From IMG/VR virus record IMGVR_UViG_3300021400_000932: 64,000 bases of DNA, one strand, 5' to 3'. The notes beneath the pieces are model-generated. The model was not told the origin of the DNA, ran no database searches, and saw nothing but the letters and a program-made list of their open reading frames with translations. Below are positions 175 through 50,321 of this stretch, one piece after another. The position numbers and the translations under genes were made by a program. The stretch comes from a virus (Duplodnaviria > Heunggongvirae > Uroviricota > Caudoviricetes). Every line of letters begins with the position of its first letter. Position 1 is the stretch's first letter.

Positions 175-251
175 TGGCTCCGAGGGTGGGACTCGAACCC
201 ACGACCCCATGATTAACAGTCATGTGCTACTACCAACTGAGCTACCTCGGA
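175..251 (-). tRNA. tRNA-Asn (anticodon GTT)
   Basis: Reverse complement folds as a cloverleaf: acceptor TCCGAGG/CCTCGGA, T-arm GTGGGTTCGAGTCCCAC, anticodon loop CTGTTAA, 3' CCA encoded. Confidence 0.85.
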
Positions 252-506
252 ATAAAAGTTGCAGGGAATAGGCTAACATCACCCTACTATGTGGACTCTA
301 ACCCTCTTATCTCCACTTCGGACAAACACCATTCCATATGCCCTTATGTTCTGGTACTATTCCTTGTCATCGGTTTATAGTTTCCCTCCTCAACGGGCGA
401 GGTGTCCGGCGCTCTCTGCAGGTCGTTGCTCACCTTTTGGGAACTGCACTTCCCTCACTACTTCGTGCAGAAAGTAGATGGCAAAGTACACTTATTTTGT
501 GTACTG

Positions 507-582
507 TGGCGATTCCAGCGGGGTTCGAACCCGCGACCTCTAGCGTGACAGGCTAGCGTTCTAACCAACTGAACTATGGAAC
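507..582 (-). tRNA. tRNA-Asp (anticodon GTC)
   Basis: Reverse complement GGTTCCATAGTTCAGTTGGTTAGAACG...CTGTCAC...GGTTCGAACCCCGC...GCCA; anticodon loop CTGTCAC; closely resembles bacterial tRNA-Asp. Confidence 0.85.
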
Positions 583-588
583 CGTATG

Positions 589-674
589 TGGTGCCGGTGG
601 TGGGACTTGAACCCACATGCTTATTCAGCAACAGATTTTGAGTCTGCCGTGTCTGCCAATTCCACCACACCGAC
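589..674 (-). tRNA. tRNA-Leu (anticodon CAA), type II with long variable arm
   Basis: Reverse complement has acceptor GTCGGTG/CACCGGC, anticodon stem-loop GCAGA-CTCAAAA-TCTGT, long variable arm, T-arm GTGGGTTCAAGTCCCAC, CCA encoded. Confidence 0.8.
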
Positions 675-679
675 ACATA

Positions 680-1381
680 TTATGAATATCTCTTATCCTT
701 GTCTTCTGCACTCCGGAAGATGAACTTCCGGTAATCCTCATAGTCTGAGAACTGAATGTACTCACCGGTGCGAACATCAAAGCAATTTGAATTTCTGCAA
801 AATTCATAGCTGTTTGCACTGACTACGATATAAATATCGCAAGATTCCCTCTGTTTGAAATCCTCAATAATGACATCGAACAAATCAGTTTTGACACTAT
901 CAATATTATCTACAGACAATCCACTATCGAGGGCATCCAGCAGCACCCAAATCTCCTTGCGGTTATTCGCATACTTACGAACAAATGCACCGATTTTCCT
1001 TGCTGTGTTGCCGAGATTCGTTACAATCTGTTCACCCTCAGAACTCTGTATCAATGTCGCAAGAAGACTCCAATCATCATGCCATCCAGCGGAATTCTTT
1101 GCTCTGTCGCCACCCTCACGGAGATTGTCGTAATGAAGAACAGCAACATCGGAATCTTGTTTTAAGATATCCTCTATGAGATTGAGAAATGTTGTCTTTC
1201 CAGAACCATTACACCCAACCAATACTGTGATTCCGCTTTTAATTACTACATCAGATTTCATATAAATCTTTCCGGAATCACCGCATTCATAAGGATTAGT
1301 AGGTATTTTGAATTTGTGCATATGTTCGCCTCCAGTTATGATGCCTAGGGTGTCGGGTATATGTGTGGTATAACCCGACAT
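680..1381 (-). CDS. P-loop NTPase, ABC/AAA_21-like minimal ATPase (likely start at internal Met MHKFKI)
   Basis: Walker A VLVGCNGSGKTTF preceded by an SMC/RecF-like N-terminal strand; Walker B IWVLLDALDSGL; no ABC signature motif; sits between tRNA genes. Confidence 0.6.
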   Translation of the reverse strand: MSGYTTHIPDTLGIITGGEHMHKFKIPTNPYECGDSGKIYMKSDVVIKSGITVLVGCNGSGKTTFLNLIEDILKQDSDVAVLHYDNLREGGDRAKNSAGWHDDWSLLATLIQSSEGEQIVTNLGNTARKIGAFVRKYANNRKEIWVLLDALDSGLSVDNIDSVKTDLFDVIIEDFKQRESCDIYIVVSANSYEFCRNSNCFDVRTGEYIQFSDYEDYRKFIFRSAEDKDKRYS

Positions 1382-1496
1382 TCTATGAATTCAATAACCA
1401 CACCTGAGTATTCATAGATGATGGTTTCAAAAAATTAAGGAGATTCATGAAAACCATTATTGAGTGTAGTGAAAAAAGTGTAAAAACCTACACCCA

Positions 1497-1593
1497 TGGT
1501 GGCGAGGGCAGGATTCGAACCTACGTTACCTGAGCTACATATCGTACTACTGTACTAAGCAATCAGTGTCTTAGACCACTTGACCAACCCGCC
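1497..1593 (-). tRNA. tRNA-like gene (type II-like, 97 nt) with non-canonical anticodon arm; identity undetermined, possibly pseudo-tRNA
   Basis: Reverse complement GGCGGGTTGGTCAAGTGG...GTAGGTTCGAATCCTGC CCTCGCC A CCA has good acceptor, D and T arms and an encoded CCA. No 5-bp anticodon stem with a 7-nt loop and U33/R37 can be drawn in the CTGATTGCTTAGTACAG region. Confidence 0.45.
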
Positions 1594-1710
1594 ATTTATA
1601 AATCAATAGGCTGTTCCTCTAACCCCATTTAACTACAGCACTTTGGACGCCTCGAAGTGTCAAACTTCTTCCATTATGCGATTTTCGTAGCACCCATCAA
1701 TTTTAATTTG

Positions 1711-2016
1711 TTATAAGAAATTCCTGCTCATAAAAAATTTCATAAAGCGTTCTTTAACCCTTCGGAACTTGTAAGAAATTCCCTTTGTAGAAATTACTTC
1801 GATTCCCATATTCCCATCCGGAAGTTTTGTGTTTCGAAATTCAAGAGAATCAATAGCATATCCGTATTCTGGTTCATCTATTGAGGTTTCTCCGGTTATA
1901 TGGAATCTCGATGAACCATCCTCATTAACCTTCGTGAATTCCAGCTCAATGAAGTATTCCTCATAGGAGTTATAAAGCCAGATGATGTCGCCTTGTTTTA
2001 ATTCTGATACTTTCAT
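1711..2016 (-). CDS. hypothetical protein
   Basis: 101-aa ORF in co-directional minus-strand array; no recognisable motif. Confidence 0.45.
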   Translation of the reverse strand: MKVSELKQGDIIWLYNSYEEYFIELEFTKVNEDGSSRFHITGETSIDEPEYGYAIDSLEFRNTKLPDGNMGIEVISTKGISYKFRRVKERFMKFFMSRNFL

Positions 2017-2025
2017 ATTGACCCC

Positions 2026-2241
2026 TTAATTATATTCAGTATCACAAAATTTGCAGATATGTCCATGTAATGGAGCTCCACAATTCTTGCAATTTGTGGG
2101 ATGATGTGGATGTTCATTTTCTATTGTGATTGGAACATCAGCTATTTGAGAATACCCATCTGCATTCCGGAGATATAAACCATCATTGCAACAACAGTAC
2201 AGTTGCGCCGATACAAACGACCAATCATTCATAACTTCCAC
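2026..2241 (-). CDS. zinc-ribbon protein (paralog of C-terminus of 15813..16151)
   Basis: C-terminal CKNCGAPLHGHICKFCDTEYN is nearly identical to CKNCGAPLHSNRCEFCDTEYD in ORF 15813..16151. Confidence 0.6.
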   Translation of the reverse strand: MEVMNDWSFVSAQLYCCCNDGLYLRNADGYSQIADVPITIENEHPHHPTNCKNCGAPLHGHICKFCDTEYN

Positions 2242-2252
2242 CTCACATCAAA

Positions 2253-2528
2253 TCAGGACATATGGTCTTCAACAAAAGATACCAAATCTGCCACTGTTCT
2301 GCATTCGCAAAATTCTGACAAAGCGGGTTCATTAATAGAGAATTTGAACATATCCTCTATATCAATAGCCAAGTCCACAGCATCAAGGGAATCAAGACCG
2401 AGGTCCCCACGAAGTTCGGTATCTAAAATTATCTCAGATTTATCTGTGTCTGATTGCTGAGATACCATGTTTCGTACAATTTCAAATACTTCTGACATTT
2501 GAACCTCCATGGCATATAACGATTTCAT
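2253..2528 (-). CDS. acpP: acyl carrier protein homolog (probable start at internal Met MSEVFEI)
   Basis: Phosphopantetheine-attachment motif LGLDSLDAVDL (DSL serine) in a small acidic ~80-aa protein, matching the bacterial ACP LGADSLD motif. Confidence 0.7.
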   Translation of the reverse strand: MKSLYAMEVQMSEVFEIVRNMVSQQSDTDKSEIILDTELRGDLGLDSLDAVDLAIDIEDMFKFSINEPALSEFCECRTVADLVSFVEDHMS

Positions 2529-2538
2529 TATACATATT

Positions 2539-2615
2539 TGGAGCAGATAAGGGGACTCGAACCCCCACTACCAACTTGGAAGGATGGTGTGCTAACCGTT
2601 GAACACTATATCTGC
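2539..2615 (-). tRNA. tRNA-Gly (anticodon TCC)
   Basis: Reverse complement GCAGATA...CCTTCCAAG anticodon loop (as in bacterial tRNA-Gly UCC), T-loop GGTTCGAGTCC, discriminator U, CCA encoded. Confidence 0.8.
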
Positions 2616-2634
2616 ATATTTGTAACTAAAAAAC

Positions 2635-3039
2635 TTAGTAGTTAAAAATTTGTCCATCTTCCGGTAGACCGGCAAATTCTGGACCCAGTTCATATGGGAA
2701 ACCATCGACATAAATGATATCGGCATCTTCATCATATGGATAAGTCTTGTTCACAGCATCACGAATAGAAGAATTGCTCTTGGCAATTTCCCGCGACCGC
2801 TTTTCAGTTGCGAAACTACGTGCAGCATTGACTAGCGAAAACATATCCGCATTAGAATAATATTTGCATTCGCAGTCCTTTTCATGATACGGAATCTTCT
2901 TCACACCAGAAAATACTAAAGTATTGATTCCACCTAATATATTCTGAATACTTGTTTCATCTGCATCGAATGCATGAAGAATATTATCAGAAAGTGCTAC
3001 GAAGATTGTATCACGCATCAACTTCATCCCTTTCATCAT
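2635..3039 (-). CDS. hypothetical protein
   Basis: 134-aa ORF between tRNA-Gly and tRNA-Leu; no clear motif. Confidence 0.45.
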   Translation of the reverse strand: MMKGMKLMRDTIFVALSDNILHAFDADETSIQNILGGINTLVFSGVKKIPYHEKDCECKYYSNADMFSLVNAARSFATEKRSREIAKSNSSIRDAVNKTYPYDEDADIIYVDGFPYELGPEFAGLPEDGQIFNY

Positions 3040-3189
3040 ATTCCTTCCGAACTAAATCATATCTATCTGCGGCTGACAACCTGTACCAATCATCTTTAAT
3101 ATCCAGAAAAGAAAAAACGGTAAGATTGTGTTCGGACAACAAATCGCAAAATTGTTCTTTATCCATATTTAACCTCAGAAATAAAAGTG

Positions 3190-3270
3190 TGGTGCGCCTG
3201 ACAGGACTCGAACCTGCACCCTTGCGGACTAGAGCCTAAATCTAGCGTGTATGCTTTCCACCACAGGCGC
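3190..3270 (-). tRNA. tRNA-Leu (anticodon TAG), type II
   Basis: Acceptor GCGCCTG/CAGGCGC, anticodon stem-loop CTAGA-TTTAGGC-TCTAG, variable arm, T-arm GCAGGTTCGAGTCCTGT, CCA encoded; D-loop lacks the GG dinucleotide. Confidence 0.7.
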
Positions 3271-3279
3271 ACATCTTAT

Positions 3280-3477
3280 TTATCCAATATCTCTATCATA
3301 AGTAGTTTTATCACAGTTCGGACATTTCATATAAGTGAAAAATTCTACGCACGGCGGAGAAATGTGGAGCTCAGCATCACTTCTATTCGCATACCACTCA
3401 CACCCACAATGTTTGCAAGTAAAATGAAACTCACCGGTCTTAGACTTGGTTACATCCCCCGATTTGACGATATTCAT
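3280..3477 (-). CDS. small zinc-ribbon protein
   Basis: CKHCGC...C...CPNC; two CxxC pairs in 65 aa. Confidence 0.5.
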   Translation of the reverse strand: MNIVKSGDVTKSKTGEFHFTCKHCGCEWYANRSDAELHISPPCVEFFTYMKCPNCDKTTYDRDIG

Positions 3478-3980
3478 AACAACTAACCTCGCTGTTCACC
3501 TAAGCATAAAGTTGTGCCGGATATTCCCCGCTCTATTCTCCGACTCCACCCCAATACACGCATTTGCCCATATCTGTGTCTTTACTGTCGTTTTTGTCGG
3601 ACAGGGTGGTATGTTTGTCAACTCAATACTTAGGATAGTCCCAAATTGCGTAGGCTTTATTGGCTTTGCATATTGGGCAGTATTTCGTACCATTTCACAT
3701 AGCACTTATCAGAGAGATTACTGTAGTTCCTCTCCATAAGATTTCAGCGCAGCACCTGCCCCTCCAGATGCCGAGTTTTATCCGTAACAAAACCAGACCT
3801 ATGTATTGAATTGACATTCTCTATCCACCACGCCGTACGCACATCATATAGCCCTCGGCGTAGCAGTCTGTGACCCCTCAAAGAGACGTGAGGTGCTTTC
3901 TTTGGCGGATTAGCTCGCCCCCGCCGGTCAGACATCGCCCTTTCATGCTTTGCCATCCTATAGTAAACCGACTTAGGTTT

Positions 3981-4056
3981 TGGTGTGCCGAGAGGGATTC
4001 GAACCCACGACCTGCGGATTAAAAGTCCGCTACTCTTCCGGCTGAGTTATCGGCAC
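3981..4056 (-). tRNA. tRNA-Lys (anticodon TTT)
   Basis: Acceptor GTGCCGA/TCGGCAC, anticodon stem-loop GCGGA-CTTTTAA-TCCGC, T-loop GGTTCGAATCC, CCA encoded. Confidence 0.85.
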
Positions 4057-4313
4057 ATAGATGTGAGGTTGGTAGTCATCCTTTTACTGCTGAGGGGGAC
4101 CCCACAACTCCCGTTTTCGAATGGGTCCGCACGGAGATTCCAAAAGGTGCGGATTTCGAAGTAGCTACTCTCCAGCTACAAGAAGAACGGTTTTACCAAA
4201 GGACTCACAACGCGATGTGAAAATCCTACCGACCGATAAGGGGATGATTTCTCGTTTACCATCCTAACGCCATCTTTTCGGCGACTAACCCAGGGCAGGT
4301 ATATGTTTCCCTT

Positions 4314-4400
4314 TGGTGCAAGTGAAGGGAATTGAACCCTTAATCCCAACAGGGCATGGGATTTTAAGTCCCACTTGTATGCCAGTTCCAACACACTTGC
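4314..4400 (-). tRNA. tRNA-Leu (anticodon TAA), type II
   Basis: Acceptor GCAAGTG/CACTTGC, anticodon TGGGA-CTTAAAA-TCCCA, variable arm CCC-TGTT-GGG, T-arm AAGGGTTCAATTCCCTT, CCA encoded. Confidence 0.85.
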
Positions 4401-5780: not shown

Positions 5781-6407
5781 TTATGCAGAAATTTCGTCTG
5801 CGGTAAGCGGAATTACGCGCGAAATGACGAATGGCACAGAAACTGTCAGGATGGCCCCTCCGGCCTGGTCCCCTGGACCTCTGTTCAAAGCACCAATCCA
5901 AGTACCAGGACAACGGAGACCATGACGCAGATTACCTTGTCCATCATAGCGAAGGAAGTAAACCTGCTTCATATACTCTGTAGGTAATCCCATTCTTTCG
6001 GTTGCAGGGTCATACACCTGACGTCTCCACTCTTCGAGAGCTCCGAGAACATTAGGCTCACAGAAGCAGTTAAGAGTCCAAGTGACATCATCGAAGTTGA
6101 CCTTAGACGGGAATTTGATTAGACCATTACCGTAGTGTACTGTGATGATATCTTCACTCTCTGAGATATCACCGATTTCTGCGGTAGACAGGGTTAATAG
6201 GTCGGAATTTTCTGTCGGGCTGGAACCATCCATGTTGTAGATTCTTACCTCAAAGTTGTTAGTGGTCAGAGGTACATAGTTATCTACACCCAACATATGG
6301 TTTGTACGTTTGTGTTTAGCGGAATTTCGCAAGGATTCCGTTGTTGTAGCTCTCCGGAAACTACCTTTTACCTTTCGATAAAAGACCAGACTATTTGTTA
6401 ATCTCAT
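5781..6407 (-). CDS. hypothetical protein (first gene of a long minus-strand operon)
   Basis: 208-aa ORF starting at the divergent intergenic region 6408-6840. Confidence 0.5.
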   Translation of the reverse strand: MRLTNSLVFYRKVKGSFRRATTTESLRNSAKHKRTNHMLGVDNYVPLTTNNFEVRIYNMDGSSPTENSDLLTLSTAEIGDISESEDIITVHYGNGLIKFPSKVNFDDVTWTLNCFCEPNVLGALEEWRRQVYDPATERMGLPTEYMKQVYFLRYDGQGNLRHGLRCPGTWIGALNRGPGDQAGGAILTVSVPFVISRVIPLTADEISA

Positions 6408-6757
6408 TATATTTTGAGATTGTGGATTTTTCGCTCACCCATTGGCTTGGCAGCTAACTCCCCCTCAAGGGGATAGTCGTTGAACGTATTTCATATTGGA
6501 TATATTACCCAACTTAGAAATTTCGCTGCTAAACGTCCCATTGTTACATCTCTTACTTTTTAATCTATCACGATTACTATTTCTAGTTTCGTTGTAGCAA
6601 AGAGCTCTTAGGAACTTCAAAGCAATTAACACACAGCACATATGTATCACTACATATGTGGGGCATCATCCACCCATGTACAGCGGAGAAAACATATATT
6701 TTATCTCACCTTTCTATAATATTTTTGAGTTTTTGATTGACTCATTGATATTATAGG

Positions 6758-7024: not shown

Positions 7025-8530
7025 ATGGAAAGATATGGATGTGTTGCCCCTGGAAATAACATAGCAGCTAGAAAGAAAGCGAAAGCTACTATGCAAGAAC
7101 GATTTGGTGTTGACTATGCTATGCAATCGGAAACTGTCAGAAAGAAATCTGTTGCCACCAATATAAAAAAGTATGGTGTCGAAAACCCCCAACAAAATGA
7201 AACAATCAAACAAAAAACCGCAGAAACAAATCAGGAACGGTATGGGGGCACCGGTTTTCAATCAGAAGAGTTGCTAAATAAGTATAAAGATACAATGATT
7301 GATATATATGGTGTTACTTCCCCCATTCAAAACCAACAGATTCGACAGGATATTATGAATACTATGCAAGACAGACATGGCGCTTCATGGTTCTCTCAGA
7401 GTGAAGAATATAAAGATAAATGTCATACTACTTCATTATCTAAATATGGTGCGGAACACTGGATGCAAACAGATGAGTGTAAGCAGAAATGCAAAGATAC
7501 TTGGCTGCGGAATTATGGCGTTGATAATCCATCGAAATCTCCGCTAGTAATCGCCAAGATAAAGCAGACATTTATTGATAAGTATGGGACAGATGGACTA
7601 TTGAATGTAGCTGAAATCCGAGAGAAGATACAGAAGACTTGCATTGAAAGATATGGTGTTCCCTATGGGGTATTGACACCACAAGCACGAAAACACAATG
7701 GTGCTATATCGAAGCAAAACAAACAAGTAATGAAATTATTAGATGATGCCGGTTTGAGCTATCAGTCAGAATTCAATCTTGAAAATAAATCATTTGACAT
7801 CAAAATTTTATATTCCAATATACTTATTGAGATTGACCCATCATACACACATTCAATAGAACTAACTCACTGGAATACCTCTGTTTCAGATACATACCAT
7901 ATAGAAAAGACTATGTTGGCAAACAAACATGGATATCAATGTTACCATATCTTCGATTGGGACGATAGGAAAAAATTTGTCAAATCTCTAACTAAGAAAA
8001 AAGATATAGAAACAGACCAATATTATATATCTGAAGTAGATGAATTGACTGCAACTGAATTTTATTATAAATATTCCATCTATATGCCGGATACCAAGTA
8101 TGCAATCCATATTGGAATATTCAACAAGCGGAATAATGCACTACTGCAAGTATCGTCATTCAGATTCATAGATATTTCTAACTGTCGGTGGCTGCTTTGT
8201 GCTAACAGCATCAAATTCCAAATTAATGTTATAGATGGACTGCATAATATCATAGACCACTTTGTTAAATACTATGACCCTGCTGAAATTGTCGGATTAT
8301 GTGATATAGCAAAATCAAATGGGATGATGTTTGAATCAATAGGGTTCAAAGAACTTTCAGAAGAACCACCACGTTTGATTTGGAGTCGATATCGGTCAGC
8401 AATTTCTAATGACAATGTAAAAAGTCAAACCAAATTGAATGATGAACAAATATACTCTATGATGATAAACAATAAATATCTGCCTGTATATGACTGTGGA
8501 TACAAAGTATATTCATTGAAACTCCGGTAA
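7025..8530 (+). CDS. repeat-containing putative site-specific/homing endonuclease: tandem ~30-aa K..(K/R)YGV.NP.Q repeats plus C-terminal PD-(D/E)xK-like (DUF559/Vsr-type) domain; N-terminal Zn-finger module probably starts at 6841
   Basis: At least eight repeats (QERFGVDYAMQSE, KKYGVENPQQNE, QERYGGTGFQSEE, IDIYGVTSP, SKYGAEHWMQ, RNYGVDNPSKSP, DKYGTDGLLN, ERYGVPYGV). The C-terminal FDIKILYSNILIEIDPSYTH resembles a DUF559 nuclease core. The in-frame upstream sequence 6842-7024 encodes CKFCGKEF...CPVCGKEY and has no start codon. Confidence 0.75.
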   Translation: MERYGCVAPGNNIAARKKAKATMQERFGVDYAMQSETVRKKSVATNIKKYGVENPQQNETIKQKTAETNQERYGGTGFQSEELLNKYKDTMIDIYGVTSPIQNQQIRQDIMNTMQDRHGASWFSQSEEYKDKCHTTSLSKYGAEHWMQTDECKQKCKDTWLRNYGVDNPSKSPLVIAKIKQTFIDKYGTDGLLNVAEIREKIQKTCIERYGVPYGVLTPQARKHNGAISKQNKQVMKLLDDAGLSYQSEFNLENKSFDIKILYSNILIEIDPSYTHSIELTHWNTSVSDTYHIEKTMLANKHGYQCYHIFDWDDRKKFVKSLTKKKDIETDQYYISEVDELTATEFYYKYSIYMPDTKYAIHIGIFNKRNNALLQVSSFRFIDISNCRWLLCANSIKFQINVIDGLHNIIDHFVKYYDPAEIVGLCDIAKSNGMMFESIGFKELSEEPPRLIWSRYRSAISNDNVKSQTKLNDEQIYSMMINNKYLPVYDCGYKVYSLKLR

Positions 8531-21116: not shown

Positions 21117-21300
21117 CCACACGACTAAAGTCGTGGGATTCTTGCTTCAACGACTACGGCGAGCGTTTTACTCAAAGAGTTCAGCTCGACTTACACAATC
21201 TCCACAAGCTAGATTAAAGAGTTCCCGTGTGCCCCACGGTGCTCTGTGTATTAATAGAGGTTAAGCTATCATAGCCAACCCTTTAGTTAATATATTCATA
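21117..21300 (-). ncRNA. putative TnpB omega/right-end guide RNA (3' end of tnpB plus right end)
   Basis: Structured ~145-nt right-end segment downstream of the tnpB stop, ending in the terminal hairpin; by analogy to characterised IS605 TnpB systems. Confidence 0.4.
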
Positions 21301-22355
21301 GCGGCATTGACATCTCTGTCGTGATACTCTCCGCACTCGGGGCAAGTCCACTTTCGTATAGCTAAATTCTTAACTAATGGATTTTTATATCCGCACTTGT
21401 TACACAACTGACTGCTCGGATAGGTAGTAGGCACTCTCTGTACTGTCCTGCCGTACCAGGCAGCTTTGTATTCAAGCATTGTAAAAAACTTAGACCACGA
21501 AGCGGAGGATATACTTTTAGCCAGCTTGTGATTTTTGAGCATATTTTTGATTTTCAAGTCTTCTACACAGATTACTTGGTTTTCGTTAATCAGTGTAGTT
21601 GAAAGCTTTTGCAAAAAATCATTTCGCTGATTAGATACCTTCTCGTGGACTTTAGCTACTCTTAGTCGTTGCTTATCTCTGTTATGGGAGTCAACCTTCT
21701 TTCTGGAAAGTTTTCTTTGTTCTCTGCGTAATTTTCTTTGTGTTCGTTCTAACCTTTTGTGATTAGGTACAGAATTACCGTTACTGTCGGAATAGAAATC
21801 TTTTATGCCGACATCTATACCAATAACGGAATCTATTCTGTCTAAAGGTTGAGGTTCAAAGTCAATGTTAAGAACAGCAAAATACTTTCCTGTAGGTGTT
21901 CTCTCTACAGTAACATTATTAATATGACCTATATTCATTGACTGTTTGACTTTAATATAGCCAAGCTTTGGTAACTTTAGTTTATTGCCGTCAATGCGAA
22001 TATTATTACCTTGATTAAGAGTTCTGTAACTCTGGCGATGGTTATGTTTACTTTTGAAACAAGGATATCTGCCTAACTTCTTAAAGAAGTTTTGATACGC
22101 TCGGTCTAAATCCCTGAGAGATTGTTGCAGAGCAATACTATCAACTTCCTTAAGAAAGGAAAAGTCATCTTGCATTTTCATAGAGGTGAGCATAGCAGAA
22201 GTAGCGGTATAGTTAGCTTTATTACCTAACTTGTATTGTTCAATTCTGTATGCTAAACCTTTGTTGTAAATGAATCGAACACAACCAAGAGTGCGGTTTA
22301 TTATGTTTTGCTGTTCCCGATTGGGATAGATACGAAACTTTACACCTTTGTTCAT
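21261..22355 (-). CDS. tnpB: TnpB (IS605 OrfB-family RNA-guided nuclease)
   Basis: 364 aa; RuvC-like motifs ([10 protein letters not shown]) and C-terminal zinc finger CNKCG...CPECG. Confidence 0.85.
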
Positions 22356-38174: not shown

Positions 38175-39689
38175 TTATAGTGTAGTTTCTTCAGTTTCCG
38201 AAGAAACATCCAGAGCTGTATCGGATATAGTTGCACTAGTCTTTGGCATACACTCACCAAGAATCTCTGACAATGCTATCTTAAACACCTCTGGCTTATC
38301 TACTCTAAGACTTTTCAGCAAATCAACAAGTGTGGAAGATTGCGTAATAGCCATATCGCGCTTATCAAACTGCAATGCACTCATTTCAGTAAGAATCGGC
38401 TGCATATGCAATTCGAACTTGTTTTCGTATCGAGAATGACCCTTTGCCACAAAATACTTGTTTAATGCATCAGTCCATCCGGCCATATATGCGGTTTCTA
38501 TTCGTTGCAAGGAGTTTGCATACAAAGCAGACCGCTGCGACATTACAGCACCGGCACCGCCAAGACCTTCAGCAGAAGAGAAGTTCAATGCCTCTTTCGG
38601 AATTCCCAGAACAGACAATTTCTTATCCTGATAGTAATTCAATAACTTATCAGCATTCTCAGAATCATCTTTCATGTTAAGGTCAGTAACAGATACAGCA
38701 TCTTGTCCGTTGACCTTTGGTATGTAAATCAAATTATTTGGCGACTGTGGGTTCAAGAAACTCTGGGTGTCGCCAGTATCTGTATTAAGAGAAAGCTGTT
38801 GCTGTATTGCATCCTTTATTTGTTGTAAGTTATCTCGGATTTCTTCTTCCTCTGTAGTGGTTCCGCAATCGACATTTATAAATCTTACAACTTTTACCAG
38901 AGATGACAAAATTGATGCATCTTCAAGCAGGTTCAGTATTTGTGTAGGTTGCAATGCCGCTTCTAACAATGGGTCTGCAAACTGAATATCATATACTGCG
39001 TCATTTCCATCTTTATCTCTTACAGCTATTTGATAATCACCAAGTAAACCACCGAGAGCAAAGTGAATAATGGACTGTTCAGGATAAATTACAGAACTTG
39101 ATGGCAAATAAGAAGTTTTTCCTTTTTGTTCTTCTGTAGGAGAAAGAATAAATCCTTTTCTTTCTCCTTGTTGCCAAACATGTATTACATCATCAGCAGG
39201 AATTTTTGTAGATGGTATGATATCATAACCATTGTCCGGAACGGTATTTGTATCAAGTGCAACACCAACATTCATATGTCGTGTTGACAAATCCTTATAC
39301 AAATCCGTTGTCGGTAAATACAAATTTCCTGTTGTAGCTAATTCAAGTATGTGGTCTCTTGCATATGCATTAATATTCCATTTACGGAATAATGCGTTTA
39401 TCAGTTCTGCCGCATCTTTCGGACCATCCGGAACCGTAGTAGCCCAAATTATCTGTCCGGATGAATTTGGAATTGTGGCGTCGGTCGCATAATAGGATAA
39501 AGCGGTTGCTACCTGAGAGTCCTTTGCCAAAGCTCGCATCTTATCAATAGTTGTCTTAATATCTGCGAGGTCTGAATCACTTTTTATGTCAGATAGGCGA
39601 TAAAAAGAACCACCAACGACACTTCTTAAAAATGACTGCGGCTTTGGACGCCGAACTACGGTCATAATCTTATCAAAAAATTTTGCCAT
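38175..39689 (-). CDS. putative portal protein
   Basis: 504-aa protein in the terminase-proximal position; CCTTATATAAT motif upstream; no diagnostic motif verified. Confidence 0.4.
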   Translation of the reverse strand: MAKFFDKIMTVVRRPKPQSFLRSVVGGSFYRLSDIKSDSDLADIKTTIDKMRALAKDSQVATALSYYATDATIPNSSGQIIWATTVPDGPKDAAELINALFRKWNINAYARDHILELATTGNLYLPTTDLYKDLSTRHMNVGVALDTNTVPDNGYDIIPSTKIPADDVIHVWQQGERKGFILSPTEEQKGKTSYLPSSSVIYPEQSIIHFALGGLLGDYQIAVRDKDGNDAVYDIQFADPLLEAALQPTQILNLLEDASILSSLVKVVRFINVDCGTTTEEEEIRDNLQQIKDAIQQQLSLNTDTGDTQSFLNPQSPNNLIYIPKVNGQDAVSVTDLNMKDDSENADKLLNYYQDKKLSVLGIPKEALNFSSAEGLGGAGAVMSQRSALYANSLQRIETAYMAGWTDALNKYFVAKGHSRYENKFELHMQPILTEMSALQFDKRDMAITQSSTLVDLLKSLRVDKPEVFKIALSEILGECMPKTSATISDTALDVSSETEETTL

Positions 39690-39705: not shown

Positions 39706-41265
39706 TTATATAAGGTGTAACTTCTCAAGGTCATTATCTATCTGAAAACTGCTGAAAAATTCATCTTCTACATAGACAGGGATGTTGTAGCTTTGAGCTA
39801 AGTCGATAATTTGTTTTGGTTCTCCCCTAAAATGACCAACAACCAGACAACTGCAATCTGAAGTTAATTCCAAAGTCACATCGGCACTATAGCTGTTAAG
39901 GATAGAAGTAATTTCTTCCAACGAACCATGTTGGAATTTTCCTGCAATGCAGATTTTCTTGTTAATAAATATGGGGTCACCCTTAAACTTCTTTTGAACT
40001 TCGACAATCTCAATATTTTGATTGTGGATGATGCTATCAAATGTTTCAGCATGTCTTCCATCAGAAAACCAGTCAACAAGATTCTTTGCAAACATAGGAT
40101 TCAGTCTTAGTTCAGAATATGCTTTATCTGGATTATTGATATAATAATGTACCGCAGTTTGTGATTTTGCTTGTCTAACGAACTGAGCTACATTGTCAAT
40201 ATTTCCCATAGTAACAGATACAGGGAGAATACTAAACAACAAGTTGGTGAGCGTGGTCTTAATTCCCCTCTCTGCATACTGAGGAAGATTGAGCACACTT
40301 TGCAGAGAACTAATTTCACCGGAATTTGCGGCTTCGATATATTCTTCATAAGGAAGTTGGTCTAAACCGAAACCAACAAGCATCTTAACAACATTCTTGT
40401 AATTGCGAGATGGACAATCAGAATCAGCGCAGATTGTAGTGCCATCATTAATGGTATACTGCTTACCGCAAATAGGACAAGTGAACACATTCGACAATCT
40501 ACCGTACTCCAGATGCGGAGAAATCGAATACACAACCTCATTATCTTCAAGCATCACATAAGTTCCGACCGAAGCATCATAAGCCACAGCATCGGAATAA
40601 GGTATGATATATTTATCCTCATTTCCAACTATGTTCCAATGCACATATCCAGATTCATCTATAAGCGGACTGGCTGATTTTACCGTATCTGCGACAAGTC
40701 CACGAGATATAAAACTGGTGGATGCCCCAATCGAAACATTGTAACCCACAGCAATCGGCAATGCCTTGTTAGTGGATTGACCTATCGTATCAATGTATGC
40801 ATCCAGTTGAGATGGAACAGAATTAGCCGTAACACTAATACCGCCGATAAAACTAAAACCATAAGACCTTAACTTACTTGCCAACATCAATGTGGCCACA
40901 TTCAAATTATTATAATGTGCTCCACCATAAGCATAAAACTTACACTTAGTCGGCCATTTTGTAATAAATTTGATTATGCTATCGTAATAACACTCCGGAA
41001 CATCACCTGTGCAAGACGAATACCTAAAATCTGGGTCTGTGATAACAATAACACCATCAACCCTGGATATTTTAGATATGGTGGAAATTCTTTGAGAGAT
41101 TACTTTTGCAGAACACAAATCTGTTACTACAGAAAATGGCAATTCCTCATTAGTTGGATTTGCAACTATGCTTGTTACAAATCCTTGTTGGGCATAGTTG
41201 ACAGAACATAAAAGTCCTACAGGAATTGGTTGAACATACTGACCCGATGAAAAAGTTGTTGACAT
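39706..41265 (-). CDS. protein with NAD-ligase-like C-terminal module (C4 Zn-finger + HhH + BRCT) and uncharacterised N-terminal domain
   Basis: CPICGKQYTINDGTTICADSDCPSRN (LigA-type Zn finger), HhH-like VVKMLVGFGLDQLP...ERGIKTTLTNLLFSI, and BRCT-like KKICIAGKFQHGSLEEITSILNSYSADVTLELTSDCSCLVVGHFRGEPKQIIDLAQSYNIPVYVEDEF. No KxDG adenylation motif. Confidence 0.55.
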   Translation of the reverse strand: MSTTFSSGQYVQPIPVGLLCSVNYAQQGFVTSIVANPTNEELPFSVVTDLCSAKVISQRISTISKISRVDGVIVITDPDFRYSSCTGDVPECYYDSIIKFITKWPTKCKFYAYGGAHYNNLNVATLMLASKLRSYGFSFIGGISVTANSVPSQLDAYIDTIGQSTNKALPIAVGYNVSIGASTSFISRGLVADTVKSASPLIDESGYVHWNIVGNEDKYIIPYSDAVAYDASVGTYVMLEDNEVVYSISPHLEYGRLSNVFTCPICGKQYTINDGTTICADSDCPSRNYKNVVKMLVGFGLDQLPYEEYIEAANSGEISSLQSVLNLPQYAERGIKTTLTNLLFSILPVSVTMGNIDNVAQFVRQAKSQTAVHYYINNPDKAYSELRLNPMFAKNLVDWFSDGRHAETFDSIIHNQNIEIVEVQKKFKGDPIFINKKICIAGKFQHGSLEEITSILNSYSADVTLELTSDCSCLVVGHFRGEPKQIIDLAQSYNIPVYVEDEFFSSFQIDNDLEKLHLI

Positions 41266-41303: not shown

Positions 41304-43625
41304 TTATCTTCTTATATATGGTCCGAACACCGATGGCATTCGGCTTTTTGGTGTTGATGGTCGTCCATTTACACTCGAAATTACACTTGCCATATTGTTG
41401 ATAGATGGCTTAATTTGGTCTTGATGTTGGATATGTGTCCAGCAAGCACCGCAAAGAGCATCAGAAAGGTCCTTTGAACCATTCTGTGGGTGGTCTATGC
41501 GATTATTCAATCTTTGTAATTTGACAAGTTCATCCTCTTGTTTTTGATTCTTAATGAGCTCCAATCTCTGGTCTTGCAATAAATTACGCAAACCAATGTA
41601 TGGGTCTTCCGATACATCGACAGAAATCTTTTCAACTGCAAATCCTTGCTGTGCTAAAGTTTCTCGCACGTAGGATGATTGAAATTGGTCCGTAGATATT
41701 ATGTTTACATTAAATCCGGTTCTACGAAGCCAAATCATAAAGTTGATTACTTTTTGGAATGACATCCTATCACCGGATGGAGCTTCAATACCAACCTGGA
41801 ATACCTGTCGATAGAATGGTAACATCACTCGTCGTTCGGTATCCAAATCAAGTACATTCTTCATACCATCTTGAACTACTCCGCTAATACCTATTCTATC
41901 GGATACCTCAGCAAAGTCTATGTGGATATTCATGGGTAATGATTTAATGTGCTTATCCACTACTTCAGGATGACAATGATTTTCGATAGTATCATTATCC
42001 CGTATGCCGATGACCAATATATCTTCAAAGAATGGATTTTTCCTTGCTGAAGTAACATTGGGTGTGATTGAATCCTGTGTAATGAATCCCATAGCACCGG
42101 TCACAGATATGCCAGCTATATCTCTTAGAGCTATATCATAATCGGCAAGGAAGTTAGTTTTGAAATCTTTGGGAACTGCAAGAACTCGATACCCAGATTT
42201 TCGGTATGCTTCCAAATGCTGTTCATCCTCATTTTCTTTCGGTATGACAAAACCTCGTTTATATCTGTCACCGACAGTAATATAGAACTTTTCCGGACTG
42301 AACATCTCTTTCGGAAGAACTTCCCACTGTGGTTTATCTACAAGATACATATTAGAGTTTCCGGCATTTAACTGAGTTTCAATATGTTCTGATAGATAAT
42401 CGGAATCTGTGTTCTTAGACGATGAAGAAATCAACTTACCATACACTTCACCACCAAGTTTGAATGTACCGGTGATACGAGCATGGACGGTGTTATACAG
42501 ATTTTTCATATGCTGTTTAGCTATATTGATATCCTTAACACCGGAACGACTGAAGTTGACCTCATCCATAAGACAGTTATGTGAAACCAAATTGGAATTA
42601 GCACAAAGTATGAAATTATGATAAGGCTGTACATTTATCACATCATACACCGGAATGGGGATATCATAAATCTTCTTGGACATCGCCACTATGGTAGGAT
42701 TTGCACCGTTAACTGAAAGCAATTCGGCACCAATGGTTAAATTACCAATCGGTCTATACTCGCCATCCGATTTCAACATCAAGTGGTCCGAAGTGCCCTC
42801 TATAATTGAACCATCTGATAAATGTAATTTAATAGTGGATGTAACATATCGAGTACATCTAATTTCAGCCTCTGTAGGTATGCAATCTTCACCAGAATAC
42901 TGATAAATGGTAACTGTGTGATTGGAACAGTATTCCAATGTCTTTACTCCTTCAGAAGTAAGTATCTTTGTATCTCCCACAAGACAGGCCCAAACCTGCA
43001 TTCCGAGTACATGCGCTGAATCGGATGCCGGTATTATATCAATCTTTCCACCCTCTGGTAGATAGACATAATTGCTTGCACTGTTGCTAAATTTACCGTG
43101 GTCATTAAACCAGGGACTTTCCCTCAGAGTTGTTTGAAATTCTCGGAATGCAACACCAGCAGCCAAATCCTTTGTCAAATTCGCAAAGGCGATAGTAAAT
43201 TTGGATACCTCTTTCTTCTTAAAATAAGAATGCGGGTCCTTATATATCATCAGCCGGTACAGCATATATGCCACAATGGAAACCGCAGTAGATGACTTTC
43301 CTATACGAGTTGCACCCGACAATATTATTTCAAAAAACTTGTTTCCATTATTAAATATATCGCTGAGAGTGTGTTTCCAAAATGGATAAACAGACTCACC
43401 TTGATTGTTGGTATTTCCTAAATATCTCGGATTGCATAAAAATTCATCTATAGATACAGGAACTTCCTTGAAATCAGAAAGCCATAATTGTTCCAGTGTC
43501 TGAGAGTATCCCTTATCCACCATCTCTTGAAGAATAATTTTGAGGGTGTTCTGTTCCATCTTAGAACAACTTGCATACACAGTTTGTATCCGATGAAGCA
43601 CATCCTCATAATCAATCTCCTTCAT
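41304..43625 (-). CDS. terminase large subunit containing a mini-intein
   Basis: Walker A ILSGATRIGKSSTAVS. The intein runs CLVGDTKIL ... VSHN, followed by C+1 and LMDEVNF (Walker B region). A C-terminal nuclease region follows. Confidence 0.8.
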   Translation of the reverse strand: MKEIDYEDVLHRIQTVYASCSKMEQNTLKIILQEMVDKGYSQTLEQLWLSDFKEVPVSIDEFLCNPRYLGNTNNQGESVYPFWKHTLSDIFNNGNKFFEIILSGATRIGKSSTAVSIVAYMLYRLMIYKDPHSYFKKKEVSKFTIAFANLTKDLAAGVAFREFQTTLRESPWFNDHGKFSNSASNYVYLPEGGKIDIIPASDSAHVLGMQVWACLVGDTKILTSEGVKTLEYCSNHTVTIYQYSGEDCIPTEAEIRCTRYVTSTIKLHLSDGSIIEGTSDHLMLKSDGEYRPIGNLTIGAELLSVNGANPTIVAMSKKIYDIPIPVYDVINVQPYHNFILCANSNLVSHNCLMDEVNFSRSGVKDINIAKQHMKNLYNTVHARITGTFKLGGEVYGKLISSSSKNTDSDYLSEHIETQLNAGNSNMYLVDKPQWEVLPKEMFSPEKFYITVGDRYKRGFVIPKENEDEQHLEAYRKSGYRVLAVPKDFKTNFLADYDIALRDIAGISVTGAMGFITQDSITPNVTSARKNPFFEDILVIGIRDNDTIENHCHPEVVDKHIKSLPMNIHIDFAEVSDRIGISGVVQDGMKNVLDLDTERRVMLPFYRQVFQVGIEAPSGDRMSFQKVINFMIWLRRTGFNVNIISTDQFQSSYVRETLAQQGFAVEKISVDVSEDPYIGLRNLLQDQRLELIKNQKQEDELVKLQRLNNRIDHPQNGSKDLSDALCGACWTHIQHQDQIKPSINNMASVISSVNGRPSTPKSRMPSVFGPYIRR
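42576..42986 (-). other. mini-intein (137 aa, residues 214-350 of the terminase)
   Basis: Block A CLVGDTKIL, block B GTSDH (TxxH), terminal blocks VYDVINVQPYHNFILCANSNLVSHN followed by Cys+1; no homing-endonuclease domain. Confidence 0.8.
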
Positions 43626-44884: not shown

Positions 44885-45188
44885 TATAGACCGCCTTTAT
44901 CTTATCCACTAGTTCAGATAATCCATCGGGTATCTCAGATTTAGACTTCTTTATATAGACGTCATAGAAACACTGTAAAGCATCTATTGACTTCGATAAT
45001 TCATCTAATGTGGGAATCCGTATCATTTCGCCGCCGGAATACTTACACAGCTTTATCAAAGATTCATGTCCTACAATAGAAAACAATTCAGGCAACCAAC
45101 TGTATTCAGGAACATCATGAAGCGGTGGCATTAACCCCAGCAGATAATGAAAGTCTAATTCTTCAGTAACTGGGAGTTTCATCGTCAA
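44868..45188 (-). CDS. hypothetical protein
   Basis: 106-aa ORF. Confidence 0.4.
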   Translation of the reverse strand: MTMKLPVTEELDFHYLLGLMPPLHDVPEYSWLPELFSIVGHESLIKLCKYSGGEMIRIPTLDELSKSIDALQCFYDVYIKKSKSEIPDGLSELVDKIKAVYNDRNN

Positions 45189-45436
45189 TAGTCCAATTCC
45201 TCTTCTTTAATAACTTCTTCTGATACAGCTATGCCACCATTGGATTCATTTTTAACAATTCTATAGTACACTACTGGGTTATTGTTATATTCCCCGTATT
45301 CAATGCAATCATTAACATACTTCTCTGCATTGTAAACATTATCAGAGACATCGCTATCATATTCACCATCTGCATACTCAATATCAACATTATAAGAAAT
45401 TACATATGCCGATGCAATAATTCTTTTCACAACCAA
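45185..45436 (-). CDS. hypothetical acidic protein
   Basis: 83-aa ORF. Confidence 0.35.
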   Translation of the reverse strand: MVVKRIIASAYVISYNVDIEYADGEYDSDVSDNVYNAEKYVNDCIEYGEYNNNPVVYYRIVKNESNGGIAVSEEVIKEEELDY

Positions 45437-48637: not shown

Positions 48638-49198
48638 TCAAATTTGTTTCTTAAATTCAGAAATAGGCATAACTACCACTTTTTCATTATGGAAGTTGTA
48701 CCCAAGACACCCTGCACCCAATTCTTGATATCGCATAAAATCATCCGCCTTTAGAACAAGAGTGGACCGGTCTGTGTTGATGTACTCAACCGGAGAGTGG
48801 GAAACCTGAAACTCTCGCATCATACACCATGTACCAGGAATAGCCTGAGTTCCGTTATCTACGAATAGAACAGGAAATCTCCGCTGTGTCATGGCCTCTT
48901 CACAAATCTTACTCCACTGTGAATATAAAAATCTGATTTCCTTAATCGGCTTAGTGTGCGTTTTACACTCTCCGAGCCATTCTTCTGATTTAATATCCCC
49001 AGGGTGGCAGTCACGAGCTCCACTTGCTGAAACTCGTGTCCATCCAAGATATTTAGCGATTAGTTCTTCCTGCTTATTTGAATAGTCCTTTGTAGCCAAA
49101 TCACTCGTCCTCATTTGTATTTGTATAATATTCTCCGAACACCTCTGTTGCTTCCTTAACCTCGGTGCAGTCATCTTCTTCGGAGTTCTCAACCCCAT
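48638..49198 (-). CDS. Hjc-like Holliday junction resolvase (PD-(D/E)xK); start probably internal
   Basis: LGWTRVSASGARDCHPGDIKSEEWLGECKTHTK fits the archaeal Hjc core motif pattern; the listed N-terminus overlaps the recA-like gene. Confidence 0.45.
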   Translation of the reverse strand: MGLRTPKKMTAPRLRKQQRCSENIIQIQMRTSDLATKDYSNKQEELIAKYLGWTRVSASGARDCHPGDIKSEEWLGECKTHTKPIKEIRFLYSQWSKICEEAMTQRRFPVLFVDNGTQAIPGTWCMMREFQVSHSPVEYINTDRSTLVLKADDFMRYQELGAGCLGYNFHNEKVVVMPISEFKKQI

Positions 49199-50321
49199 TT
49201 ATGTCATCGGAGATATATTTCTTCAACTTTTCATAATATTCTGTATTCTCTTGAAGAAAAGCATATACCTTTGCCATTCCATTGATTTTGAGTTCGGCAC
49301 CAGTACCTGTAGTCAACACTTCTCCGGTATATGGGTCACAGATTGTAAACCATCCACCGCGTTTTCTAATTATACCCTTGCCGACAGCCAACTTAGCAAA
49401 ATCGAAATCCTCTCTTATACCAGAATCATACATTAAGAAATATGTTCCAACTCTGCGGTTGTTCGGTGCGGACTTCTGCTTCACTATCTTAGCATTGATA
49501 ATATATCCGGCAGGACTTTCTGCACTCTTCGGAAGTTCATTGCCGAGGAAGTCAACAGGATTTCCCAACTGGAACAGAATACGCAAAGAAGAATAGAACT
49601 GCGGAGCTTTACCACCAGGAACCTTTATCACATACGGATTATCCATATTATCTCTAATCTGGTTGATGAATAATAGAGTACATTCATATCTTGTAAGCAG
49701 AGGAACAACTTTACGGAAAAACACACAAAGCAAGCCAGCAAGTGCAGCCACAGTACTTTCTCCATAATGCTTATCAAGTTCACGCTTTGTTACAAGAGAT
49801 GGGATTGAATCTAATACTACTAACCCGACTTCTCCAGTACAGATTAGTTCTTGCATAGTTTCAAGAATTTCCTCAGCAGCCAAATTAGGTGGCGTCATAA
49901 TATTGATTTCATCCGGCTTGATGCCCAATGTTTTTGCCCAAGCACCATCAAATGAATTTTCGAGGTCAAGATACAGAACTTTCTTTATACCTCTATCCTC
50001 TAAATCCTCAAGAGCCCCTTGGTACTTCTTCTTGTCCTTGGCGGCTTTTGTCCTCAAATCTTGGAGCTGGGTTTCATATTCTTCCTTAAAAATCTTGTAG
50101 GCATTCTTACAGATATCAATAGCGGTTGTAGATTTACCGCCGGATGGTGCCCCATGAAATTCGGTAATCTTGTTACGCGGAATTCCGCCATAGGTACACC
50201 AGTTCATTAACGGGGATGAGAATGGGAGCTTGTTTCCCCTCGGAGCTGTTGCTCTGTCCATCAATTCAGGACAATCCCACTCTTTGGATTTTTGTTTGAT
50301 TATGTCTGCAAATGAAGCCAT
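49101..50321 (-). CDS. RecA-family recombinase (UvsX/RecA-like)
   Basis: GGIPRNKITEFHGAPSGGKSTTAI (Walker A); VLDSIPSL; LLFINQIRDNM (compare RecA LIFINQIRMKI). Confidence 0.75.
   Translation of the reverse strand: MASFADIIKQKSKEWDCPELMDRATAPRGNKLPFSSPLMNWCTYGGIPRNKITEFHGAPSGGKSTTAIDICKNAYKIFKEEYETQLQDLRTKAAKDKKKYQGALEDLEDRGIKKVLYLDLENSFDGAWAKTLGIKPDEINIMTPPNLAAEEILETMQELICTGEVGLVVLDSIPSLVTKRELDKHYGESTVAALAGLLCVFFRKVVPLLTRYECTLLFINQIRDNMDNPYVIKVPGGKAPQFYSSLRILFQLGNPVDFLGNELPKSAESPAGYIINAKIVKQKSAPNNRRVGTYFLMYDSGIREDFDFAKLAVGKGIIRKRGGWFTICDPYTGEVLTTGTGAELKINGMAKVYAFLQENTEYYEKLKKYISDDINGVENSEEDDCTEVKEATEVFGEYYTNTNEDE

Follow-up and report, generated by a model that had tools for sequence, protein, structure and literature searches.

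The question raised by the packaging locus of IMGVR_UViG_3300021400_000932, an IMG/VR record of a tailed virus (Caudoviricetes) from which a stretch of 64,000 nucleotides was analyzed (hereafter the window), is why the gene for its large terminase subunit (terL, product TerL) carries 137 additional codons within the ATPase domain, and whether these encode an element that removes itself from the protein, one that has become a fixed part of the phage, or one that comes and goes. The answer argued here, to which a probability of about 0.88 is assigned, is that the insertion is a canonical class 1 mini-intein in the Walker B strand of TerL, that packaging would depend on its splicing, and that it is a selfish element turned over at its site. 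An initial annotation of the same DNA, made from the sequence alone, had already proposed a mini-intein in this gene. The host, a myovirus-like phage with a ~190-kb genome, is uncultured. An identical precursor protein is encoded on three contigs, the longest being a metagenomic scaffold of 193,432 bp, so the insertion is not an assembly artefact. No cultured-phage match was returned by megablast of 24 kb around terL, and the phage is thus without a close cultured relative.

Splicing motifs and fold of the insertion

The strongest evidence for an intein is comparative. A terminase search of a large protein collection yielded 914 homologues, and the state of the insertion site was scored in the 120 best. 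The site is occupied by an insertion of 135–159 amino acids (aa) in 84 of these and by nothing in 35; a further homologue, P0069, has a 179-aa insertion at the same site and stands outside the 84, which were counted by motif. The 13 cluster representatives most similar to the window protein in the host sequences flanking the insertion, the exteins, are all intein-free (P0010–P0022; 96.5–100% aa identity, most at least 99%). Across the site, the empty alleles P0010–P0029 read VLGMQVWA/CLMDEVNFS, which is the product predicted to arise from splicing of the window protein (junction peptide ...QVWACLMDEVNF...). The DNA of the empty Walker B site is GGTTTGGGCGTGCCTCATGGATGAG, and an intein-free locus (L006) aligns to the window at 92–96% on both sides of the insertion and lacks exactly these 411 bp.

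The residues that would carry out class 1 splicing are conserved to an extent that the remainder of the element is not, median pairwise identity among the same-site inteins being only ~39–43%. In an alignment of all 84, residues C1, T65, H68, D115, H123, F125 and H136 are invariant, as is the first residue of the C-extein, Cys+1, and the terminal N137 is present in 83. Block F of the window intein has the form VYDV...HNF and includes both D115 and H123. Set against L007, the closest relative with an intein (80% identical to that of the window), the window intein has a ratio of nonsynonymous to synonymous divergence (dN/dS) of 0.13, and it is under purifying selection that keeps the splicing residues. 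By every sequence-level feature, the insertion is a class 1 mini-intein, and active splicing is suggested by the invariant catalytic residues, the dN/dS of 0.13 and the essential host motif in which the element lies. A variant is found in P0009, whose intein ends in His-Asp instead of His-Asn (NTILISHD/C); it may be splicing-impaired, may cyclize through Asp, or may reflect a sequencing error.

The NCBIfam profile TIGR01445 (intein_Nterm) matches the insertion at 26.9 bits, above its curated cutoff of 24.5. Searches of PDB sequences with phmmer returned a halophilic DnaE intein (7qil, E = 1.9e-5) and a Clostridium thermocellum intein-like domain (2lwy, E = 2.1e-5), with weaker matches to the Npu and Ssp DnaE inteins and alignments spanning block A to block F/G. 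An AlphaFold model, built from an alignment of 34 inteins of the same family, is all-beta along its full length (mean predicted local distance difference test, pLDDT, 97.6). Compared with the PDB by Foldseek, it matches solved inteins with template modeling (TM) scores of 0.80–0.85 and E-values of 1e-8 to 2e-9, including 0.85 for the Npu DnaE intein and 0.83 for the C. thermocellum bacterial intein-like (BIL) domain 2lwy; the top matches are all HINT domains, the Ssp DnaB, Mtu RecA, gp41-1 and NrdJ-1 inteins among them. On this model the insertion is predicted to adopt a HINT fold that uses all 137 residues, so that no endonuclease or linker domain would be present between blocks B and F. No endonuclease match was found in the intein with Pfam, PHROG or NCBIfam. 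An endonuclease hidden in another reading frame of the intein was considered and rejected: on the antisense strand no open stretch exceeds 77 codons, a length reached or surpassed in 19% of synonymous recodings, and no antisense or out-of-frame open reading frame (ORF) is longer than chance.

Other members of the HINT superfamily were weighed against a class 1 intein. A class 3 intein was ruled out by the presence of Cys1, the absence of the WCT pattern and a block F in which Asp115 is invariant and no Cys is conserved. BIL domains lie in variable regions of non-conserved proteins, usually lack a +1 nucleophile, and cleave rather than splice. Such a domain was ruled out here because Cys+1 is invariant, the site lies in a conserved strand and the insertion is exactly absent from orthologues. 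More broadly, a degenerate or non-splicing HINT or BIL-type domain that is retained in the mature protein, or that cleaves it without ligation, might be suspected from the best Foldseek match, which is the bacterial intein-like domain 2lwy, and from the best Pfam match, which is PT-HINT at a score under its cutoff. This explanation is nonetheless extremely improbable, as it leaves unexplained why all class 1 splicing residues are invariant, the +1 nucleophile included, why the insertion interrupts the best-conserved strand of an essential ATPase and not a variable region, and why orthologues lack it exactly; moreover, a cleaved terminase would be dead.

Splicing of the window protein would follow the canonical class 1 pathway. 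A precursor of 87.6 kDa would be translated first, and Cys1 would carry out an N-S acyl shift at the Ala213-Cys1 bond. The thioester so formed would be attacked by Cys+1 (trans-thioesterification), and cyclization of Asn137, assisted by His136, would free the intein of 15 kDa. An S-N shift would then restore a peptide bond to give a 72.5-kDa terminase with an intact VWACLMDE strand. The masses computed for precursor, ligated exteins and intein (87.6, 72.5 and 15.0 kDa) agree with those expected in the initial annotation (~87 kDa giving ~72 plus ~15 kDa). Its coordinates (42576–42986) and length of 137 aa are exact by direct reading and computed positions, the motifs it listed (Cys1, TxxH, HN and Cys+1) are all present, with the splicing residues kept throughout the 84-intein alignment, and its description of a mini-intein without an endonuclease domain is borne out by the single 137-aa HINT model and the lack of an endonuclease profile match.

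No second intein was detected in the window by a family-specific intein hidden Markov model run against the six-frame translation. Three homologous terminases (P0053, P0085 and P0068) have a second intein in the nuclease domain, after the residue equivalent to precursor aa 713; their sizes of 139, 230 and 455 aa resemble a series of mini, decaying and full-length forms. The window has no second intein at the equivalent position (~41484..41489).

The host protein and its predicted Walker B strand

The protein that carries the insertion is a large terminase, comprising an ASCE ATPase and an RNase H-like nuclease. In a tblastn search, proteins annotated as large terminases in phages of Bacillus (SP-15 and HSE3), Listeria (LIS04), Rhizobium, Maribacter and Vibrio align with it at 25–34% identity over 70–90% of the length. 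Its Walker A region, and no other part, is matched by PHROG 17415 (terminase large subunit; E = 7e-7). A T4-type portal gene (38175..39689) is found two genes downstream of terL, with a tail sheath gene farther on, and LIS04, HSE3, SP-15 and the Rhizobium phage have their terminase and portal genes in this order too. A local copy of Pfam-A and NCBIfam gave no terminase family match for either the precursor or the spliced form, the precomputed label PF27249 being the sole Pfam record for the host protein, and a profile of intein-free homologues gave no match among PDB sequences. An AlphaFold model of the spliced terminase, of low confidence as a whole and with pLDDT of 70–89 in the region of the nuclease domain, was used only for nuclease-domain matches. 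The eight best Foldseek matches of this model are all large terminases (from PhiV-1, HK97, G20c, P74-26 and SPP1), those to the G20c, P74-26 and SPP1 nuclease domains having a TMt of ~0.6. Terminase inteins have also been described in crAss-like gut phages (PMC7886860). A crAss-like identity was ruled out for the present phage by the tail sheath and T4-type portal genes in the window.

Within the ATPase domain, G104 and K110 of the Walker A motif GATRIGKS are invariant, distant annotated TerLs included. In VWACLMDE the Glu is invariant, and the Asp nearly so, across the family and the distant TerLs. An hhalign comparison with T4 gp17, for which the sequence was verified as PDB 3ezk/3cpe, is collinear and not significant (E = 0.095); it sets RIGKS on QLGKT and ASDSAHVLGMQVWACLMDE on ASSPDAVRGNSFAMIYIDE, with the Asp-Glu falling on D255/E256 of gp17 (AMIYIDE). 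These comparisons place the insertion inside the predicted Walker B β-strand (VWA/CLMDE), between its first and second hydrophobic residues and three residues before the Asp. Among the 84 intein-bearing relatives, Cys+1 is located three residues ahead of the Asp in 50, four ahead in 33 and six ahead in one. The initial annotation was right to assign the element to the ATPase domain of TerL and to the Walker B motif; its placing of the element just before that motif is to be amended, as the site is within the strand.

At this position 137 residues break the strand that carries the catalytic Asp-Glu pair, and the unspliced protein should therefore not hydrolyze ATP. A precursor so affected is taken to be inactive, and packaging would then depend on splicing. 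Assembly of terminase pentamers has also been argued to be unlikely as long as the intein is in place (PMC5050341). That splicing is obligatory for packaging, as had been claimed from the outset, is very probable in view of the position of the insertion, the invariance of the catalytic residues in the 84 relatives and the dN/dS of 0.13.

Gain, loss and replacement at one site

Comparison of filled and empty alleles bears on the history of the site. All 84 alleles with an intein have Cys at +1; in 10 of the 36 without one, the residue is Ala, Ile, Leu or Phe. The terminase therefore does not need this Cys, and its presence in close intein-free alleles would mark former hosts or sites open to invasion. 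Within the extein cluster to which the window belongs (cut at ~90% identity), the site exists in four states: empty (20 representatives) or filled by inteins of type 24 (the window and P0001), 29 or 34, these three lineages being less than 50% identical to each other. P0002–P0009 have exteins 92–95% identical to those of the window and inteins only 41–47% identical to its intein, P0001 being the only one of P0001–P0009 with a related intein (80%). The reverse pattern is also seen, with inteins 94% identical in exteins 73–75% identical (P0008/P0033 and P0053/P0058). In all, at least 50 intein lineages at 70% identity occur among the 84 same-site sequences.

This incongruence between inteins and exteins is not a mere difference in constraint, as it is evident in synonymous divergence (dS). 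Between P0008 and P0033 the intein dS is 0.53 and the synonymous sites of the exteins are saturated (proportion of synonymous differences, pS, 0.76–0.89); between P0001 and P0002 the intein dS is greater than 2 and the extein dS 0.38–0.42. Nucleotide identity switches no more than 30 nt from both junctions, and protein identity does so within a span of 25 residues, which indicates that the intein itself is the unit exchanged. The initial annotation had called the element non-mobile, which is not supported. It does lack an endonuclease of its own, yet in closely similar terminases the site is empty or filled by one of three lineages, and the dS values show transfer of inteins between diverged terminases. 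The element appears to be selfish rather than domesticated, having been gained, lost and replaced at one site in the phage population. When relatives infect the same cell, homologous recombination across their highly conserved flanks would be the most likely way for inteins to be exchanged. The window has a gene for a UvsX-like recombinase (49101..50321).

Mobilization in trans was weighed as another route. A free-standing homing endonuclease that cuts the empty Walker B site could mobilize the mini-inteins by what has been called collaborative homing, and the sharp junction breakpoints and frequent presence/absence polymorphism do look like the outcome of homing. A gene for a free-standing homing endonuclease is present in the window (7025..8530, plus strand), and in LIS04 an "endonuclease" ORF lies between pieces of a terminase gene interrupted at the same site. 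However, the endonuclease in the window is 35 kb away, beside a group I intron, and is more probably that of the intron. No endonuclease gene was found beside terL in the window or in L005, L006, L007, L012, L013 or L014, and the gene order around terL in the intein-bearing loci examined is that of the intein-free locus. Nor can cutting of an empty site explain how, where the site is already occupied, one intein comes to replace another. Homing in trans is therefore held to be quite improbable. A related idea, rated as unlikely, is that the Walker B site is a hot spot at which mini-inteins turn over too fast for passive recombination alone; this would call either for an undescribed mobility route (a trans-acting nuclease or site-stimulated recombination) or for a selected polymorphism, such as incompatibility between intein-bearing and intein-free alleles in mixed infections.

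The pattern of presence and absence also bears on a proposed coupling of virion production to the redox state of the intein, which was part of the initial annotation and finds no support here. In its full form, this proposal describes a fixed, immobile mini-intein kept as a switch, in which a disulfide between Cys1 and Cys+1, or another disulfide, blocks splicing and ties virion output to host redox. Both junction nucleophiles are indeed invariant cysteines, which could in chemical terms form a disulfide, and splicing would gate activity because the site is in a catalytic motif. Conditional splicing in response to redox or reactive species has been documented in other inteins (PMC10663303; for a DnaB intein, PMC8557812), and a possible regulatory role of TerL inteins was raised by Kelley et al. 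(PMC5050341). The element is not fixed, however: the lineage does well without it in the 13 closest extein representatives, which argues against an indispensable regulatory role, and three divergent intein lineages in near-identical terminases fit a selfish element better than a tuned regulator. Cys1 and Cys+1 are the only cysteines conserved. The other four cysteines of the intein are not: Cys20 is shared by 45 of the 84 inteins and Cys44 by seven, and at positions 35 and 128 the five most frequent residues do not include Cys. Nor was a redox motif seen, CPGC-like or otherwise. A redox switch thus has little probability, and a selfish mini-intein remains the preferred reading.

Several observations weigh against that preferred reading. 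Pfam profiles PT-HINT, the best match, and Intein_splicing score on the insertion only under their cutoffs. The AlphaFold model of the spliced terminase is poor, with pLDDT of 56.8 overall and below 50 around the Walker B motif. The Walker B assignment draws on the hhhhDE motif, its invariance, and the gp17 alignment with its non-significant E-value of 0.095. The allele in the window, finally, fits an old residence with exact loss in sister lineages equally as well as a gain from an unsampled donor. Between the window and L007 the intein dS is 1.0 and the extein dS 0.8–1.4; the extein dS between the window and the intein-free L006 is 0.33. A deletion between the two TGTCTT copies listed in Table 1 would yield exactly the intein-free reading frame.

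Coordinates, neighboring genes and known terminase inteins

The features of the interrupted gene are collected in Table 1. The intein opens with codons TGT CTT GTG GGA GAT ACA (CLVGDT), closes with TCA CAT AAC (SHN) and is directly followed by TGT CTT ATG GAT GAG (CLMDE). The G+C content is 37.5% in the insertion and 38.8% in the exteins.

Table 1. Positions in the window of the terL precursor gene, its predicted intein and their motifs.
Feature	Position	Strand	Basis
TerL precursor gene including the intein, 773 aa	41304..43625	-	ORF list, tblastn, PHROG 17415, gene order, Foldseek
N-extein, aa 1-213, ending in ...VLGMQVWA	42987..43625	-	99-100% identical to the N-terminal part of intein-free P0010-P0018
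Walker A / P-loop GATRIGKS, aa 104-111	43293..43316	-	Alignment with distant annotated TerLs
Predicted class 1 mini-intein, 137 aa (CLVGDTKIL ... NLVSHN), precursor residues 214-350	42576..42986	-	Motifs, profiles, fold, empty-site alleles
Cys1 codon TGT, putative nucleophile of the first splicing step	42984..42986	-	Read from sequence; 84/84 relatives
Block B TSDH, intein residues 65-68	42783..42794	-	Read from sequence; T65 and H68 in 84/84
Penultimate His136 and terminal Asn137, CAT AAC	42576..42581	-	His in 84/84, Asn in 83/84
Cys+1 codon TGT, first C-extein residue	42573..42575	-	84/84 intein-bearing alleles
Predicted Walker B part CLMDE in the C-extein	42561..42575	-	Joins VWA (42987..42995) to give the strand VWACLMDE
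C-extein, aa 351-773 and stop; remaining ATPase domain and RNase H-like nuclease domain	41304..42575	-	Foldseek matches of the model
6-nt direct repeat TGTCTT (Cys-Leu), two copies	42981..42986 and 42570..42575	-	Intein start and C-extein start

Other mobile or accessory features occur elsewhere in the window. A group I intron (Rfam, 64.1 bits against a gathering score of 50) is found at 6366..6681 on the minus strand, and the ORF just downstream of it (5781..6407, minus strand) possibly represents the 3' exon of a split structural gene. The homing endonuclease mentioned above, of 501 aa (PHROG 3339, 12131 and 559), lies ~350 nt from this intron, to which it probably belongs, and is the only large plus-strand ORF in the window. 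A gene for an IS605/OrfB (TnpB-like) transposase is located at 21261..22355 on the minus strand (PHROG 506, E = 6e-134); in L007, an OrfB_IS605/Cas12f-like gene occupies another position (L007 554..1714). A gene of 519 aa (39706..41265, minus strand) separates the terminase gene from the portal gene; only its C-terminal half is NAD-dependent DNA ligase-like (PHROG 3869, residues 260–508; a weak BRCT match is on record), and the N-terminal 260 residues are without a match. This gene is kept in those intein-bearing loci that reach it (L005, L007 and L012), and the intein-free contig L006, of 7,083 bp, ends partway into it. At 1.6 kb upstream of terL, L006 lacks ~250 bp of the window sequence, a small accessory-gene indel that holds an 83-aa ORF (45185..45436, minus strand). 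Eight tRNA genes are grouped near the start of the window, at 175..4400 on the minus strand (for Asn, Asp, three Leu, two Lys and Gly).

An intein in the ATPase motif of a phage terminase, Walker B sites and mini forms included, is already known and in itself ordinary. Mini-inteins are usually regarded as immobile remnants. Less routine in the present case is that mini-inteins without an endonuclease turn over at one site of near-identical terminases; these proteins, with the site empty or filled by one of several unrelated mini-inteins, make up a natural data set on mini-intein spread and loss. In practical terms, annotations of the terminase in this phage group should give a protein of 636 aa and an intein of 137 aa, and gene callers or profile searches blind to the intein will mis-size or miss the protein. 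The panel of very small (135–159 aa), diverse Cys1/Cys+1 inteins might also serve protein engineering.

Relatives of the intein itself are numerous in metagenomes. A search of a metagenomic representative library with the family intein profile returned 2,290 related HINT domains at E-values up to 1e-10; when the six best of these were scanned with Pfam, two proved to be multi-intein family A DNA polymerases, one of them 3,009 aa long with about six inteins. Among cultured phages, a tblastn search with the intein alone gave five weak matches, all at no more than 34% identity over more than half its length. The solved inteins closest in structure include the cyanobacterial DnaE inteins (Npu and Ssp; PDB 4kl5, 2keq and 1zde) and engineered Ssp DnaB and Mtu RecA mini-inteins, which share with the window intein the HINT fold (TM 0.80–0.85), a like size and the Cys1, TxxH, HN and Cys+1 chemistry. 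The DnaE inteins differ in that they are naturally split, reside in a polymerase, and are only ~24% identical to the window intein.

The nearest cultured relatives of the terminase, at ~33% identity, are those of Bacillus phage vB_BceM-HSE3 and Listeria phage LIS04, which are relatives of Thornevirus SP-15. Their junctions are equivalent to those of the window, reading ...DVF/CLTGSTKIM... and ...VVVHN/CAMLDEIEF in HSE3 and ...VVVHN/CGLLDEVEF in LIS04. Intein identity to the window is 27.5%, and whereas the window intein is contiguous, the intein region in these phages is broken over several ORFs. In HSE3 (L002 1372..4385) the N-extein and ~100 aa of N-intein run to a stop, followed by a 90-aa ORF and then by an ORF that starts with ~44 aa of C-intein; in LIS04 (L001 1429..5103) the intervening ORF is the "endonuclease" noted above. 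Database annotation treats these terminase pieces as independent genes; from their sequences they look like naturally split inteins or fractured genes. In the "dCTP deaminase" ORF of HSE3 (L002 912..1430), a segment resembling an intein (...KCLEANTEIY ... IYAHNCC) is probably the second one of this phage.

TerL is the commonest intein host among phages, accounting for ~40% of mycobacteriophage inteins; those in TerL occupy seven sites, all in the ATPase domain (PMC5050341). One of these sites lies in Walker B (TerL1-e, Gaia gp2), and its class 1 intein splices efficiently in an Escherichia coli reporter (PMC5050341). The Gaia and window inteins are thus alike in class and in their position in the Walker B motif of the TerL ATPase domain. 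They differ in that the Gaia terminase belongs to the Terminase_1 family and that of the window has no local Pfam match; no detectable close sequence relationship was seen between the two inteins. In a survey of actinophages, 293 of 784 inteins were found in terminases, with local dissemination among related phages, and nine mini-inteins were reported, including a 134-aa TerL mini-intein in the cluster EN phage C3PO (bioRxiv 10.1101/2025.01.02.630785). The C3PO and window inteins are alike in class (class 1), in size (~135 aa), in host (TerL) and in lacking an endonuclease. That actinophage survey, however, counted few such elements, whereas at the site described here, in phages of another host range, all 84 inteins among the 120 best homologues are mini-inteins of 135–159 aa.

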